A DNA stretch of 64,000 nt from positions 24,304,001 to 24,368,000 of the forward strand of contig OX597821.1 of NCBI GenBank assembly GCA_951406725.2. The letters run 5' to 3'. Within the stretch, counting starts at the first letter, position 1. Every line of letters starts with the position of its first letter. Below are positions 4,676 through 64,000 of this stretch, one piece after another. The translations under genes were made by a program, and so were the position numbers. The notes beneath the pieces were generated by a model, which worked only from the letters and a program-made list of their open reading frames with translations, was not told the origin of the DNA and made no database searches. The stretch comes from Octopus vulgaris. Its lineage: Eukaryota.

Positions 4676-4831
4676 TTTGTTAAGGCCGGTCAGAGAGTGA
4701 CCATTGGATTCGCACCTATAAAGCACTTGGCTGTATAGGCACAGACTCAAATGAGTCTGATGTGTTGCCTATACAGCTAAGCGCTTTATAGGTGCGAAGC
4801 CAAATGTCACTCTCTAACCGGTCATAACAAA
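4676..4831. repeat. ~156-nt imperfect hairpin (small fold-back element or structured RNA)
   Basis: TTTGTTAAGGCCGGTCAGAGAGTGAC...TTCGCACCTATAAAGCACTTGGCTGTATAGGCA pairs with TGCCTATACAGCTAAGCGCTTTATAGGTGCGAA...GTCACTCTCTAACCGGTCATAACAAA. Confidence 0.85.
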
Positions 4832-7463: not shown

Positions 7464-7530
<67 letters not shown>

Positions 7531-8060
7531 AATGAGCAAAGGGAGAAAATGGAGAAATTGACATACAGACATCAGTTTATTCAAAGATATTCAAATCCAC
7601 ATAATGAAATTCCTGTCCTACGGTCGTTTCTATATCCAATTGGTTCAGTTACAGAAATTAAATTAAATTAATCTAATTTGAATTTTCATATTGGTTAATT
7701 GGGTAATTTATCAGGGAAGGATTTTCCCAAAAGGGAGTTACATTTCATCGTGTTGGTTGACCAACGGCAGACTCAGGTGTGTCTGAGTCTATCACCTGAG
7801 TCTGAGTCTGACATTTGAGCCTGCCGTTGGTCAACCAACACGATGAAATGTAACTCCCTTTTGGGAAAATCCTTCCCTGATAAATTACCCAATTAACCAA
7901 TATGAAAATTCAAATTAGATTAATTTAATTTAATTTCTGTAACTGAACCAATTGGATATAGAAACGACTGTAGGACAGGAATTTCATTATGTGGATTTGA
8001 ATATCTTTGAATAAACTGATGTCTGTATGTCAATTTCTCCATTTTCTCCCTTTGCTCATT
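7531..8060. repeat. Near-perfect inverted repeat, 240-bp arms (7531-7770 / 7821-8060) with a 50-bp spacer
   Basis: Direct reverse-complement comparison; about one mismatch seen. Confidence 0.95.
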
Positions 8061-8222
8061 TATAAATATTTTAAATACCTATATACCGCTGCTATGTTAA
8101 CGTTTGTTTTCGTTTGCCGCAAAGGCATTTTTCAAAATACGCCGGCCAAGATAAGTTAAAAATTGTCTAAAGTCGTAAGACGCCGCTGTTTTTGTCCTGC
8201 TTACCATTCTTGTTTTTTATTT

Positions 8223-21258: not shown

Positions 21259-21339
<81 letters not shown>

Positions 21340-21344
21340 TATAG

Positions 21345-21736
21345 AAGTAATATTTGTAGCCACTTTAACGTGGCCGACCGTTCGAGCGGACTCTACTACG
21401 ATTTTTTAACCCCAAGAGGACATTTCTAGCTGGTTGACGATGCACACCTGCATCCGATGGAATTGCGTCCAGGGGAGCGAACACCTACCATCTCCTAGCG
21501 ACGGGACCAGTAGACCAGTCCTGGAGTACTGAGGAGTGGCAGAAATAGCCCGAAACCAGGACTGGTCTACTGGTCCCGTCGTTAGGAGATGGTAGGGGCT
21601 CGCTCCCCTGCTCGCAATCATATCGGATGCAGGTGTGCATCGTTAACCAGCTACAGATGTCCTCTTGGGGGTTAACAAATCGCAACTGAGTCTACTCGAA
21701 CGGACAGCCATGTTAAAATGGTTACGAATATTACTT
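21345..21736 (+). mobile_element. GC-richer fold-back element (~180-nt imperfect arms) with a hammerhead ribozyme at the apex
   Basis: Arms 21345-21524 and 21556-21736 are reverse complements with ~25 differences by manual alignment; flanked by TA/TTTA microsatellites. Confidence 0.85.
21525..21571 (+). ncRNA. Type-I hammerhead ribozyme, canonical core
   Basis: Stem I AGTA/TACT; core CTGAGGA (21529-21535); stem II G(T)GGC-agaaata-GCCC; GAAA (21552-21555); stem III ACCAG-ga-CTGGT; GTC cleavage triplet, predicted cut after 21567. Confidence 0.8.
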
Positions 21737-21783
21737 ATCAGTACAACTACTGCATTGATCACTTAGATTTTAGAACTATATAA

Positions 21784-21867
<84 letters not shown>

Positions 21868-22418: not shown

Positions 22419-22476
22419 TACGGAGATGTACTCGCATAGCAAGTAATTTGATCTGAGATCGTGTGCTGAAACGAAA

Positions 22477-22748
22477 ACAATTGCAGCGTGGAAGGTGTTT
22501 ATAAGCCATTTAAGAAACACACAAAAGCCGTTCGATTCACTCCAACATTTAAGTTTAATTTGTCAAAATATTTTCGTCGCTAAAATCCGCCACCTGTTCA
22601 CTGACAAAGTCCGGACTTTGTCAGTGAACAGGTCGCGGATTTTAGCGACGAAAATATTTTGACAAATTAAACTTAAATGTTGGAGTGAATCGAACGGCTT
22701 TTGTGTGTTTCTTAAATGGCTTATAAACACCTTCCACGCTGCAATTGT
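22477..22748. repeat. 272-bp spacerless palindrome centred on AAAGTCC|GGACTTT (22612/22613)
   Basis: Direct comparison; one mismatch seen. The left arm extends further, to ~22415. Confidence 0.95.
22617..22666 (+). ncRNA. Candidate minimal hammerhead ribozyme with G3-C8 core variant (mirror copy on minus strand 22559-22608)
   Basis: Stem I TTTGTCA/TGACAAA; core GTGAACA; stem II GTCGC-ggatttta-GCGAC; GAAA; palindromic stem III AATATT. Confidence 0.55.
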
Positions 22749-22877
22749 ATATATATATATTATGATATGTAAAAAAATACAAACTGTGACAAGAACGCAT
22801 AACACTTAGAAGACGATACAACAAACACAGACAGGACATTCGAAGCCCTCAGTCTTCAGTCAAGAACCGGATCATCG

Positions 22878-23896: not shown

Positions 23897-25126
23897 TTGG
23901 GTTGGCAACTAAGTTCCCGTAATTTTTTAAAATTTATATTTTTTAAAAGGTTTAATAAAAAACAACAACTAATTAATCAATAATGTATTCACTCTTGTTG
24001 TTTACAACTTTTTCCCAACGTTCAACAAGATTTTCAATACCTTGTTGGTAGAAATCACCCGATTTCGACTTAAAAAATTGATCCAACCAAGCTCTCAGTT
24101 CTGCATCCGTATTGAACGAAACTCCGCGCGTAGCATTTGAAAGAGATCGAAAGAGGGGGAAATCCGTTGGTGCCAAATCAGAAGAGTACAGCGGGTGTGG
24201 CAGCACTTCCCAGCCATGCGTTTAAATGGCTTCCTTGGTCATATTGGTGATATGAGGGCGGGCGTTATCGTGCAGCAGAACTCCATGCTTCCGATTAGGT
24301 CTTTTCTCTTGAATAACCGTGTTGAGTCGTTCCATCTGTTGAACATAGGGTTCTGCATTGACCGCTTGGTTCCGTTCAAGCGATTCGTAATGGATAATCC
24401 ATTCCCAGTCCCACCATACAAACAACATCGTTTTACGCGGATGAAGATCTTGTTTCACGTGCGGTGTCACTTGTTTACCGGGGCTAAGCCATTCCTTACG
24501 CTGCTTCATAATGTACAGGCACTATTTTTCGTCGTCAGTAACGATTCGGTAAAGAAATAATTGCTTGTGTCCATGACTTGAGTGGTGACGGGCGAGCAAA
24601 CCGGAGATTGTGGCTCGTTGATTTTTGTTGTTGTCACTTAAAGCATGCAGAACCCATGCTCAATACTTCTGAACCTTTCCCATCGAGTGAAGATGCTTCT
24701 CTATAGCTGTGTGGGAGCATTCCATTTTCTCTGCCAGTTCCCTTGTCGTTTGAGGAGAATTTTCGTGCAAAAGTTGGTTTAACCGCTCTTCATCGAACTC
24801 AACTGGACAGCCAAAACGAGGTGCGTCTTTGAGGTCAAAATTTCCATTTTTGAACTTGACATACCAATCATGAGCGGTTCTTTCTGCTATGGCACCCGCT
24901 CCATACACAGCACAAATGTCGCGAGCAGCTTTTGCGGCCTTAGAATCTCGAGTAAAAGCAAAAAGAAGGAGGTGTCGAAAATGCTCGTTTTTCTTAACTT
25001 GACATTCCGTTTTAATGATCTGAAAATAAACAAAAATTAACTAAAATTAACAAGAAAAAAACCCGAAAAAAAACAAAATAGATTCCAAAATCTAAAATAA
25101 ACCGCGGGAACTTAGTTGGCAACCCA

Positions 25127-33390: not shown

Positions 33391-33487
33391 AAGAAACCTG
33401 GGGCCGATTTGCTCGACTAAAATGCAGTGCTCCAGCATGGCCACAGTCAAATGACTGAAACAAGTAAAAGAGTAAAAGTGTAAATGA

Positions 33488-33540
<53 letters not shown>

Positions 33541-33570
33541 GAATATATATATATATATATATATATATAA

Positions 33571-33615
<45 letters not shown>

Positions 33616-33715
33616 TATATTCATTTACACTTTACTCTTTTACTTATTTCAGTCATTTGACTGTGGCCATGCTGGAGCACTGCATTTTAGTCGTCAAATC
33701 GACCCCAGGTTTCTT
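33391..33715. repeat. Inverted duplication of a SINE A tail centred on a (TA)n tract
   Basis: Arms ~33391-33490 and ~33619-33715 share private variants (AAAATGCAGTGCTCC, GTGTAAATGAAT). Confidence 0.9.
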
Positions 33716-43593: not shown

Positions 43594-43800
43594 ATCCAAA
43601 CATGAAAACACAAAGAGAAAACACAACAACGCGAGGACGTGGAACAAGTATAGTGTTATTGGACGCTCAGGAAAGGAAAGAAAGAAGGAGGATTTAACGT
43701 TTCGAGCGGAGCTCTTCGTCAGAAACATAGGAAAAGGAAAGATCCAAGGAAGGGAAGACGGAGGGAAAAAATCGCCAACGACACACACGCGGTCACATAT
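43590..43800 (-). mobile_element. Penelope-like pLTR fragment between (TA)n tracts, with minimal hammerhead motif
   Basis: Minus strand GTTT-CTGACGA-A-GAGC-tcc-GCTC-GAAACGTT-AAAT at ~43692-43726. Confidence 0.7.
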
Positions 43801-53960: not shown

Positions 53961-54688
53961 CTTCACACAACTATTCAATAAATTACTTCAAAATACAAAC
54001 TATACCAGTGTTGTACCTCATTGATATGACCAAATACTAAAATGATCGAATACAGGATTCACTCAAATACGTCAATAACTTCGTGAGTTAATACAATATA
54101 TGTATCACTATAGTCAGAGGTGTACTACAAACGTCAGTCATGTACTGCAGTATACAACCACAGTCTGTGCTACACCTGCCCAGATATGATGCTTCAATAT
54201 AATTTTGTGACGGACTAACCTGCTATCAAAATTTGGTAGCAACTAATTTTAACAGAAATAACTGAGAGCTAACGTTATTCGAGATTTTAACAATCGACTT
54301 CCACTCTAGCTGTCTATTTACGTCTATCTAGCAATGTATATTTTATTAGAAATTGATTAATGTGTCGCAAGAAAGAATTGCAAGACAGTTTCTTCAAGCC
54401 GAGCTAGCTGACAGAAGACCTCGAGATAAACAAAGAACGTTGGATAATACTTCTAACCTCACTTACTCGCGCTTGAGAATTCAGTCGAAAAGTGTAATGA
54501 CCGTTGCGTTTAGAAGTCTATGAAAGAGATGTCTAAGACGCTCACCCGACAAAAACCCTCCTAGGAATTATGAACAGAGATAGATTATATATATAAGAAA
54601 TTAAAAATGGAAAATACACACACTTTACATAATTTTAATGGAATTAAAAGCGGTTTCGCTTTTGCTATTCATGATATTAAGGACTGCT

Positions 54689-55109
54689 ACCACGAAACCA
54701 ACGGTTAAAAATTGTGGACGCCCAAACTGTGGAATCCTGCCCCAACTTACTTGAAGGCTCGGATTTCCTTTTCAAACAAGGACAGAGGTTCACAATGAAA
54801 ACTAGTTTCACTTGTGTCGCTGAGAACCTAACTTATGTAATAACCTGCTCGGGTTGCGAACACAATTATATTGGACAGACGAGTATGACTGAGACGGAGA
54901 ACCCCTCTACATAAAAAGCAAATCCGTTTCCCGCAATACAGGCAAATTCTTTTCAGTGAACATATAGAAAAATGTCCAGATAACATCAAACCAAATCTCA
55001 CAGTCTTCTCCTTCTACCAGTGCAAAGACACAATTTCTCCACAAGAACGTTTAAATAAAGAAATTTTTTCATCGAAAAATACAGAACACGTCTTAATATG
55101 CACGCATAA
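54689..55109 (+). pseudogene. Penelope-like element GIY-YIG endonuclease remnant
   Basis: CGRPNCGI-CP Cys linker, FTCVAENLTYVITCSGCEHNYIGQT, HKKQIR...FSEHIEKC and ERLNKE..FIEKYRTRLN; frameshifted. Confidence 0.88.
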
Positions 55110-61529: not shown

Positions 61530-63310
61530 TGTATGCTGAGTGCTTTCCATTCAGGTCATCTCTGAGGTAAGAGAGCCCAGCTATTTTGGGGCTGTATAGG
61601 AGATCATCTGGAAAAGAGTGTTTCTTGAGGAGTTCATTGCCAACTCGTACAATGTTGCTCACTTCACGTTTCAGGGCTGCATAAATATATTCATTTTCAC
61701 TGCTGTTGTTTCGCAGGTGCTGTCTGAGTGATACCATACGACATTCGAAGGCCGTCTGCACTGATCTCAGGTCTCTACCACCTTTATTTCTTCTTAGGTA
61801 GAGCCTGTAAGCATCACTGTTTCTGTGGAAGTTCCCAGTTGTTGTCAGGATTTTGCGGGTTTTGATATCTATGGAGTGGATTTTCTCTACAGATCAATCA
61901 AGTATCCCAAATGTTGGGATCAGCCCTGGTACTGCGAAAGCATTGTGGGATATTGTTTTGTTGTAAGAGGAGAGTTCCGACTACCATATTTTCCTAAGTC
62001 TGCTGTAATATTCTCGGGTCACTCTATCTTTATTCACAGTGCCTTCATATGATACATTTATGTCTATGCCTAGGTACTTCTAACATTCTTTGTGTGGAAG
62101 GGGAAGATAGACAGACTGTTGATGTACGGATTTTGGTTTGTGGGGACTGACTTTCCTCGTTCTATAACCAAATACGAACATTTCTTTTGGCCAAATTCCA
62201 TGCCTATATCAGATGAAAACATTGTTATTAATTCCAGTTTTTTTTTCATTATTAACACTTTTAGGATAAATCTTCAGGTCGTGTACAAAGAAATTATGAG
62301 TTACATTGATATTTCTGGCAGTTGAAGATCCTAGCCTGTAACCATTTGTTTCCTGCAGTAGGAACGACAATGGATTCAATGCCAAAATGAAAAGAAGTAC
62401 AGGAAGACTATCTCCTTGGAATATTCCCTTTGTAATTCTTATACTATTAGAAACAATTATTCTGTTCTCAGTTGTAAGGGTAAGAATAGTTGTCCATGCC
62501 TTTCCGAGTCTCTCTATGGCAGCAATTAAGGCAGTAGGTACCTTTGCCAGATGTAGGCTCTTCAACAGCCATGAATGAGGGATAGAGCCGAATGCCTTCT
62601 TATAGGTAAGCCATACTGTCACAAGGTTTCTACGATGTTTTCTTACTTCAGACAGTACAGCTTTGTTCATTAAAAGTTGTTTGGCACATCCCCACACTCC
62701 CTTCTTTCCACCAGCCTGTTCATCAGTCACAATGTTGTTCGACTCACAATGGTCCTGGAGGAATTGGTTGAGGCGTCTTGTGTACAGTTTGTACATAATG
62801 TTTAGGCAAGCAATGGGCCTGTAGTTTCCTGCTATCTCGGTGATTTCATTGTTGGCAATAAGATTTGTCCTTGCTGTAGCAAACCAATGTGATATATCAA
62901 TCTGACCTTCCATAGTCCTTTTGAACATGCATATCAATTGGTTACAATAAAACGTCAGTTTCTTGTACCAATATATTTCTTTACTACCCACAAGGGGTTA
63001 AACATAGAGGGGACAAACAAGGACAGACAGAGGGATTAAGTCGAATACATCGACCCCAGTGCGAAACTGGTACTTTATTTATCGACCCCAAAAGGATGAA
63101 AGACAAAGTCGACCTTGGCGGAATTTGAACTCACAACGTAACGACAGACGAAATACCGCTAAGCATTTCACCCGGTGCGCTAACGTTTCTGCCAGCTCGC
63201 CGCCTTCAGTATCTTGTACCAATATCCAACTATTAGGTCCCTTCCAGGTACCTTCCCATTCTGAAGTTTGCTTTCTGTTACAGCGAAGATTTCTGCATCA
63301 ATTTAAATGT
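61530..63310 (-). mobile_element. R4/Dong-like reverse transcriptase region, decayed and interrupted by a SINE
   Basis: NYRPIACLNIMYKL, EQAGGKKG..GC..QL, W.TYKKAFGSIPHSW, GIFQGDSL..LLF.LALNPLS, HNFFVHDLK (YMDD-like), DIGMEFGQKKC and LYL.R.KGGRDL. Confidence 0.9.
62975..63207 (-). mobile_element. SINE family B inserted in the RT with ~20-bp TSD
   Basis: TCAGT(T/A)TCTTGTACCAATAT on both sides. Confidence 0.9.
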
Positions 63311-63314
63311 AGAT

Positions 63315-64000
63315 TTAGGTCTTCACATTGAGTCTTGACAGATTGAATAGTTTACCGTCCGACCTTGTGTGGAGGCAAACGCCGTCGTTATGCGTCCCAA
63401 ATGCATACGTCAGCATGGCAGCGAAGTAGCTGTTTAACAGGGTAGGGGCAAGCACGTATCTTTGTTTTACCCCACGTCGAACATCAAAGGGTTCTGAGGT
63501 GTTTTCGTTGAAGTGTACTGTAGCCTTTATGTACAGATGGAATGACTCAAGGATGCGGAGCAGTCGAGGAGGACACCCAATATTCCCAAGAACTTGGAAC
63601 AACCCATTCCTACTCACCGTGTCAAACGCCTTCGTCAAGCTAACGTAGAGAGGGTGGTTCTGTAGAAGGGTTGGTTTTGTTCCCTGCATTTCTCTTGTAA
63701 ATGCCGAAGGGAGAAAATCATATCCATCGTGGATCGTCTGGAGCTGAAACCACTTTGAGATTCTGGATAGATCCTTTCTACAAGTTTCCGAACAAATGCC
63801 TTCTCGATGACATTGAGCAGTGATATGCCTCTATAGCCGTCACAGTGATTCCTGCTTCCTTTGGTTTTATACAACGTGACAATTTTACTGTCTTTCATAT
63901 CACTGAGAATCTCCCCTTCCATCCAGCAATGACACACGATATGGTGGAGTTGGTGTAGGATGTCTTCTTTCGAACACGTGATAACTTCAGCTGGTATCCC
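63315..64000 (-). mobile_element. RTE-clade LINE reverse transcriptase fragment
   Basis: GIPAE, IVTLYK.KG....C..YRGISLL, PESQSGF...RST.DMIFSLR.LQEKCREQ, LTKAFDTVSR, GVKQ..VLAPTL and RSDGKLFNLSRL. Confidence 0.93.

Follow-up and report, generated by a model that had tools for sequence, protein, structure and literature searches.

The hairpin at 21345-21736 of the window (the whole stretch of 64,000 nucleotides of Octopus vulgaris DNA analysed here) raises the question of whether a long fold-back sequence with a hammerhead ribozyme at its apex is a working, mobile RNA, as the first-pass annotation proposed, or the trace of something else. The data suggest that it is very probably an old copy of a 361-nt retrozyme lying head-to-head with a truncated, inverted copy of itself, likely as a result of one insertion by the reverse transcriptase (RT) of a Penelope-like element (PLE), with a ribozyme that is predicted to be inactive. 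The parts of the locus are as follows.

21263..21344, no strand: AT microsatellite flank, read from the sequence; the right flank from 21779 is likewise (TA)n
21345..21524, minus strand: inverted, 5'-truncated copy of the unit (unit 72 to 254), 91% to the family majority
21525..21778, plus strand: main copy of the unit (unit 41 to 300), 90% to the family majority
21525..21571, plus strand: type I hammerhead motif, its parts legible in the sequence
21556..21736, plus strand: right arm, where the main copy pairs with the inverted copy, from folding and arm alignment
21737..21778, plus strand: one-sided "tail" (unit 255-300), from the 3'-end pile-ups at 254 and 312

The two arms (21345-21524 and 21556-21736) pair along their whole length in the predicted fold, which has a minimum free energy of -297.6 kcal/mol compared with -117.7 +/- 6.5 kcal/mol for 100 shuffled controls (z = -27.9). 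Alignment of one arm against the other gave 24 substitutions and 1 gap, excluding two extra terminal gaps that are artefacts of the cut points, which agrees with the earlier description of arms pairing end to end with about 25 differences. The apex measures 31 nt (21525-21555) and the adjoining 25 bp are without mismatch (P ~0.03 in the window copy), as had been reported. The accompanying statement that the differences are mostly distal needs qualifying, as the distal and proximal counts were 16:9 (P = 0.11) and no apex-to-end gradient was present in 13 other fold-back loci (0.218 near the junction vs 0.191 farther away, P = 0.26). The element runs on past the proposed right end at 21736, to about 21778. 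The end of the inverted copy coincides exactly with the first of the two 3' ends seen in the family, the tail lacks its last 12 nt because the second of those ends is at unit 312, and the 5' truncation of the main copy falls within helix I of the ribozyme. No direct target-site duplication was found in the flanks of the window locus. The flanks at 21334-21344 and 21776-21786 are an 11-nt inverted repeat of each other, which may be chance.

The proposal of a canonical type I hammerhead was borne out. The core consists of CTGAGGA (21529-21535), GAAA (21552-21555) and the UH at 21566-21567, and it is surrounded by three helices with helix I open, which is the type I arrangement. Helix I (AGTA at 21525-21528 with TACT at 21568-21571) has 4 bp in the window copy; in the majority unit it has 6 bp and a long extension, and it was shortened in the window by the inversion junction. 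Helix II (21536-21551) is made of a G-C pair, a bulged T, GGC/GCC and a 7-nt loop, while helix III (ACCAG/CTGGT, 21555-21566) is near-palindromic and leads into the GTC with a predicted cut after 21567. Helix III, the cut site and the 3' strand of helix I all lie in the right arm, and no hammerhead core motif was found on the minus strand, including the inverted copy. When the Rfam hammerhead models were run on the window and eight family loci, as had been recommended, no match was obtained at gathering or E-value thresholds, and the only Rfam matches there were generic microRNA-hairpin models below the gathering score. Motif scans overlooked the window's ribozyme because its helix II is bulged, and such scans therefore cannot show that ribozymes are absent elsewhere.

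A search of the window's genome for the family gave 1,293 candidates, the best 40 of which were scored, and later family queries gave 1,017-1,628 candidates with the top 40 scored each time; these are candidates and not copy numbers. With more than 1,000 search candidates the locus is not single-copy, a case that the first-pass annotation had named as counting against its proposal, and its suggestion of a non-coding, retrozyme-like element is supported, the family being multi-copy and bearing the PLE insertion marks described below. The unit derived by aligning 69 pieces (45 distinct loci) is about 361 nt long; its core lies at position 45, its GC content is 47% and its longest ATG-started frame has 21 codons. 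Many of the family matches span only the ribozyme and the right arm. Sixteen of 56 loci are longer than one unit and 6 of 56 contain two whole ribozymes; no long tandem array was present among the loci fetched, and copies reach at most about two units. Upstream of the ribozyme, copies continue into the 3' part of the 361-nt unit, with no reading frame. In other sequencing runs the usual neighbour in front of the position corresponding to 21525 is the linear unit, with loose ends in 43 contigs of run X1 and 58 of run X5. Two runs whose status as RNA is a guess contained 6 and 33 contigs with family pieces, one of which is close to the window locus and spans the cut site; the contigs show no ends. 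Rather than a rod-shaped unit, the hairpin represents a single copy of a non-coding repeat of 361 nt that is partly tandem.

The way in which these copies begin and end points to PLE machinery. The 3' ends pile up at unit 254 (11 pieces) and unit 312 (10 pieces), 58 nt apart, and in a sample collected with a ribozyme-free query 17 and 17 of 45 ends were near these two positions. Flanks are 78% AT compared with 63% locus-wide (51 flanks), and an AT microsatellite is present at 28 of the 51. Head-to-head pieces were found in 34 of 71 loci, and in 11 of 29 loci of the ribozyme-free query sample. The ribozyme-at-apex layout is uncommon (4 of 71 loci), and six fold-backs do not have a whole ribozyme. 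The 5' ends cluster at unit 96-103 (7/19, P 0.009-0.025), within the 3' strand of the ribozyme stem, and such clustering would explain why the ribozyme is sometimes at the apex. The available text of Craig et al. 2021 (PMC8557442) describes 5' truncation, partial tandems, an inverted truncated copy and a one-sided tail for PLE insertions, and that of Frangieh et al. 2024 (PMC11167929) describes how a PLE protein nicks both strands and extends them, with two internal start sites that define the tail. The octopus family resembles the PLE insertions of these two accounts in its inverted 5'-truncated copy at the 5' end, 5' truncation, partial tandems, tail at one end, AT-rich targets and two internal start sites. 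It differs from the PLEs of PMC8557442, as far as that text goes, because the octopus unit has no reading frame and its tail is 58 nt compared with 30-40 nt.

These observations can be accommodated by the following model. The unit RNA, tandem or circular, would be processed by the hammerhead, possibly as a dimer formed through the near-palindromic helix III. A PLE protein would then nick both strands of an AT-rich site, cDNA would start at the two internal 3' ends of the unit RNA, and the two truncated cDNAs would be joined head-to-head. Once inserted, the arms mutated independently. A more specific version, in which a PLE dimer primes both target strands at two sites 58 nt apart and the RT stalls in the ribozyme hairpin so that capped hairpins recur, is put forward tentatively, at a little less than an even chance.

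At one locus, L174 (1501-3900), TA runs enclose an inverted copy of the unit, a unit fragment and a PLE frame truncated at its 5' end. The junction between unit and PLE has a 2-nt overlap with no unit sequence beyond the PLE, and the divergence of the two parts from their respective families is about 9% and 11%. This structure fits a template switch within one insertion. The junction was not shared by any of 39 other best matches, and a PLE protein match was found in only 1 of 56 family loci, where the frame is downstream of a unit fragment. The genome carries PLEs with RT and GIY-YIG domains, including frames of 781 codons, and one PLE family has copies that are 99.8% alike; a cysteine-rich linker suggests PLEs of the Neptune or Nematis type. 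No RT and GIY-YIG frame was present within the 361-nt unit, and comparison with 67 stretches (30 GIY-YIG loci, 13 regions and 24 PLE loci), a small part of the 6,136 GIY-YIG candidates, revealed no autonomous PLE whose terminal repeat shares homology with it. Searching for a partner by terminal-repeat homology returned only neighbouring copies of the sister family discussed below and one 36-nt match. The octopus unit differs from the published PLE insertions in that no homologous autonomous element was found for it among the stretches compared, and we infer the family's link to PLEs from the insertion marks and the single fusion (1/56 loci).

Several other elements were seen in the course of this work. 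In one PLE family (L119-L123 and L127), which has many similar copies, the 781-codon RT-GIY-YIG frame is intact, with a second open frame upstream of it; the hammerhead in the terminal repeats of this family has the U3-A8 core and, like that of the sister family, a short palindromic helix III. On the minus strand of L120 near 5730, a hammerhead of a different family lies near a fold-back apex and adjoins a PLE 3' end. Within the window, 54683-55068 is a broken PLE endonuclease fragment, 24225-25040 contains pieces of a mariner-type transposase and 62212-63830 contains RT pieces. A minimal hammerhead-like motif at 43722 belongs to a further repeat on the minus strand (43600-43760) that is also present in L189. 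The fold-back at 22420-22750 is a young member of a different family, for which there are 1,556 candidates and copies are 95-99% alike; one arm has a 57-nt tail, the apex varies and no hammerhead was seen in it. By eye it resembled the 361-nt unit, but the alignment between them did not rise above shuffled controls. Another fold-back, 7527-8064, has 254-nt arms that are 98% complementary; other copies in the family are about 85% alike and for the most part have a single arm, and the arms of 7527-8064 are far more alike than the age of the family predicts. Short inverted repeats lie at 33391-33715 and 4676-4831, in one of which two fragments of a common repeat face each other head-to-head across a TA run. 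A Pfam scan of 40 of 123 candidate frames gave no host gene; its matches were transposon pieces and one weak zinc-finger.

The effect of the inversion on the ribozyme was estimated by folding prediction. Imposing the hammerhead fold costs 2.5 kcal/mol in the majority unit, 14 kcal/mol in the right copy alone, 20 kcal/mol in a nascent RNA ending at 21571 and 33.5 kcal/mol in the full element. Because the ribozyme fold costs about 33 kcal/mol in the hairpin and about 2.5 in the normal unit, inactivity is predicted for the window copy. In the normal unit a long imperfect stem, continuous with helix I, is capped by the ribozyme; in the window the inversion replaced one strand of that stem with sequence perfectly complementary to helix III and the cut site. 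The segment 21500-21590, which had been proposed for an isolated-motif cleavage control, includes 25 nt from the left arm, and the prediction is that it is trapped to the same degree (+33.5 kcal/mol). Helix III is predicted to be far more stable as a self-duplex (-16.9 kcal/mol) than as a hairpin (-2.0 kcal/mol), and its near-palindromic sequence fits the dimer model of animal hammerheads given in the part of PMC4209133 available. Changes in loop II were fewer than expected (ratio 0.48-0.57), which is only a hint of a tertiary contact between loop 1 and loop 2.

Divergence of family pieces from the majority has a median of 9.4% (4.3-17.7%, 69 pieces), and no young family copy turned up, the best being 90% to a good copy. 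Intact cores were found in 23 of 61 copies of the larger sample, from which four loci were left out (picks by exact core pattern or the query itself), compared with 31% expected from background, and in 6 of 21 copies of the ribozyme-free query sample. The first-pass annotation had named a core no better conserved than its flanks as a finding against its proposal, and here the evidence is divided: in the ribozyme-free sample the core changed at a rate of 0.091 and its neighbours at 0.096, whereas in the larger sample, which was drawn with queries that include the ribozyme, core changes were 48 against 67 expected (ratio 0.71, P about 0.01). This deficit is not predicted by pure post-insertion decay. 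Family decay appears mostly neutral, perhaps with some selection among source copies, and the window locus is probably an inert fossil.

The inverted arm could instead have come from fold-back (self-priming) of one cDNA, or from later DNA repair, without priming on two strands. This is an unlikely route, though it has some points in its favor. Both arms do derive from one template lineage, as 2.1% of sites carry a change common to an inverted arm and its own main arm, compared with 0.8% for unrelated pairs, and at some loci (L003, L005-L007) the junction lies in sequence where the unit is self-complementary. However, self-priming predicts equal outer ends, and the window arms end at 254 and toward 312. 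One arm at each of the canonical 3' ends was likewise seen in 7 of 27 inverted loci and both arms at the same canonical end in only 1 of 27, most having one canonical end and one other. There is also no overlap at the window's junction. This alternative alters only the inversion route and not the verdict on function.

A second alternative, that the unit is the terminal repeat (pLTR) of an autonomous PLE and that its copies are the short 5'-truncated ends of such an element, is given less than one chance in ten in spite of the fact that all of the insertion marks are PLE marks. A rare full-length parent could have been missed since only the top 40 candidates were scored. However, the ribozyme is preceded by the 3' part of the same unit and not by a reading frame, 16 of 56 loci extend beyond one unit, the unit has no ATG-started frame above 21 codons, and the only locus with a PLE protein match has its frame downstream of a unit fragment.

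The reading that motivated the question, in which the mobile or functional entity is the rod itself, alternating between the rod fold and an active ribozyme as in hammerhead viroids, is highly improbable. The core in the window is intact and 25 bp next to the apex are perfect, but an intact core is expected by chance in about 31% of copies. A similar ribozyme-at-apex layout does recur in 4 of 71 loci, but all 34 of the 34 inversion junctions differ and the whole ribozyme is missing from six fold-backs. The first-pass annotation took the arm differences to be those of a master element, which predicts that they are held in common by other copies, and they are not. Inverted arms have changes in common with other inverted arms at 0.78% of sites, equal to the 0.8% of unrelated pairs, and for apex-type inverted arms the value was 0.65% compared with 0.73% with unrelated arms; inverted arms share changes with their own main arm, which together with the differing junctions speaks against the rod as a unit. 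One substitution and a 3-nt deletion that the majority lacks are common to both window arms, which have 12 and 13 private changes in addition; the 12 in the left arm recurred in 5 of 103 inverted-arm comparisons and 9 of 132 main-arm comparisons. A left-arm change at unit 201 was found in 6 of 25 inverted arms vs 2 of 34 main arms, which would favor a shared rod, but four of those six came from a search ranked by likeness to the window. The ratio of G-U to A-C mismatches was 86:88 (12 loci), and the rod therefore shows no strand preference. The cost of the ribozyme fold (33.5 kcal/mol, and still 20 in nascent RNA to 21571), the removal of part of helix I by the inversion and the lack of a core on the minus strand also argue against a switch. 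In the Avsunviroidae, the hammerhead viroids, the hammerhead is masked by a more stable fold. The window hammerhead is likewise hidden within a more stable fold, but it is present on one strand only, in a genomic DNA repeat with no sign of selection on the rod, and its perfect-complement rod stems from a DNA inversion with no covariation between copies. The hairpin is probably an insertion by-product with no working RNA switch, and the fold-back is a recurring accident of insertion.

A fold-back DNA transposon (MITE) or an assembly artefact has practically no chance of being correct, since long inverted arms within a TA-rich site are accompanied by many single-arm copies, junctions that are all different and no target duplication, by arms 13% apart with independent changes that a duplicated read would not show, and by a contig from run X4 that covers 21547-21753 with 3 differences and no gap.

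The old retrozyme copy and its family can be compared with a sister family (L132-L161, for example L152:509-1794; 2,724 search candidates), which has a 360-nt unit with young copies that are 96-99% alike. The two families are identical at 221 of 380 columns (score 144 vs a shuffled maximum of 46.5). The sister family has up to 2.6 units in tandem, inverted copies, and 3' ends 59 nt apart (a 59-nt tail). Its hammerhead keeps all three helices with different sequences, including a palindromic helix III, and each of 39 cores has a compensatory U3-A8; the available part of Cervera and de la Pena 2014 (PMC4209133) describes this covariation in PLE hammerheads. Selection on the ribozyme is clearer between the families than within the window family.

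Animal non-LTR retrozymes include mussel repeats of about 350-390 bp, according to the available text of Cervera and de la Pena 2020 (PMC7229834). The octopus family agrees with that account in its type I hammerhead, non-coding unit within 150-450 bp, GC content below 50%, partial tandems and the presence of PLEs in the same genome. It differs in that the octopus copies seen here are dispersed and truncated, do not exceed about two units and have decayed by about 9%; inverted copies, common in the octopus family, are not mentioned for animal non-LTR retrozymes in the part of PMC7229834 available. On the features compared (hammerhead, size, tandems, coding, GC), all of which agree, the family is a further member of the known animal non-LTR retrozymes. 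As in the PLE hammerheads of PMC4209133, so far as covered there, helix III is palindromic and suited to dimers, and the U3-A8 core given there is present in the sister family and in one PLE of this genome; unlike in those hammerheads, helix III of the window family is longer (4-5 bp) and closure as a monomer is possible. The preprint of Li et al. 2026 (bioRxiv 10.64898/2026.07.22.740005) argues, in the portion available, that retrozymes are non-autonomous PLE derivatives, and reports that most genomic copies of vertebrate retrozymes are inactive and that 1 of 9 tested dimers cleaved. Use of PLE machinery is thus concluded in both cases, with that preprint relying on co-occurrence and terminal-repeat homology and the octopus data on insertion marks and one fusion. 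The words "tail" and "octopus" do not occur in its main text as available, and "inverted" occurs once. In another cephalopod, a squid, 235 hammerhead matches are counted in the available part of PMC6962438. The octopus 361-nt family is not described in the corresponding parts of PMC6962438 and PMC10886601 and did not turn up in literature searches on octopus, cephalopods or PLE inversions, though it may already be catalogued in Repbase or Dfam.

The one-sided tail, the inverted truncated copy and the PLE fusion together provide direct genomic support for the idea that PLEs mobilise animal retrozymes, and the family is a modest new addition to the support for PLE-driven retrozyme insertion. The data also serve as a caution that a ribozyme-capped rod in an animal genome can resemble a viroid-like RNA and yet be a by-product of insertion. 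If priming of both target strands by a PLE dimer is true, retrozymes would record their own integration mechanism and the chimera with a PLE frame would name the donor lineage. In that case the young sister family and the near-identical PLE copies would make the long-assumed partnership between retrozymes and PLEs testable.
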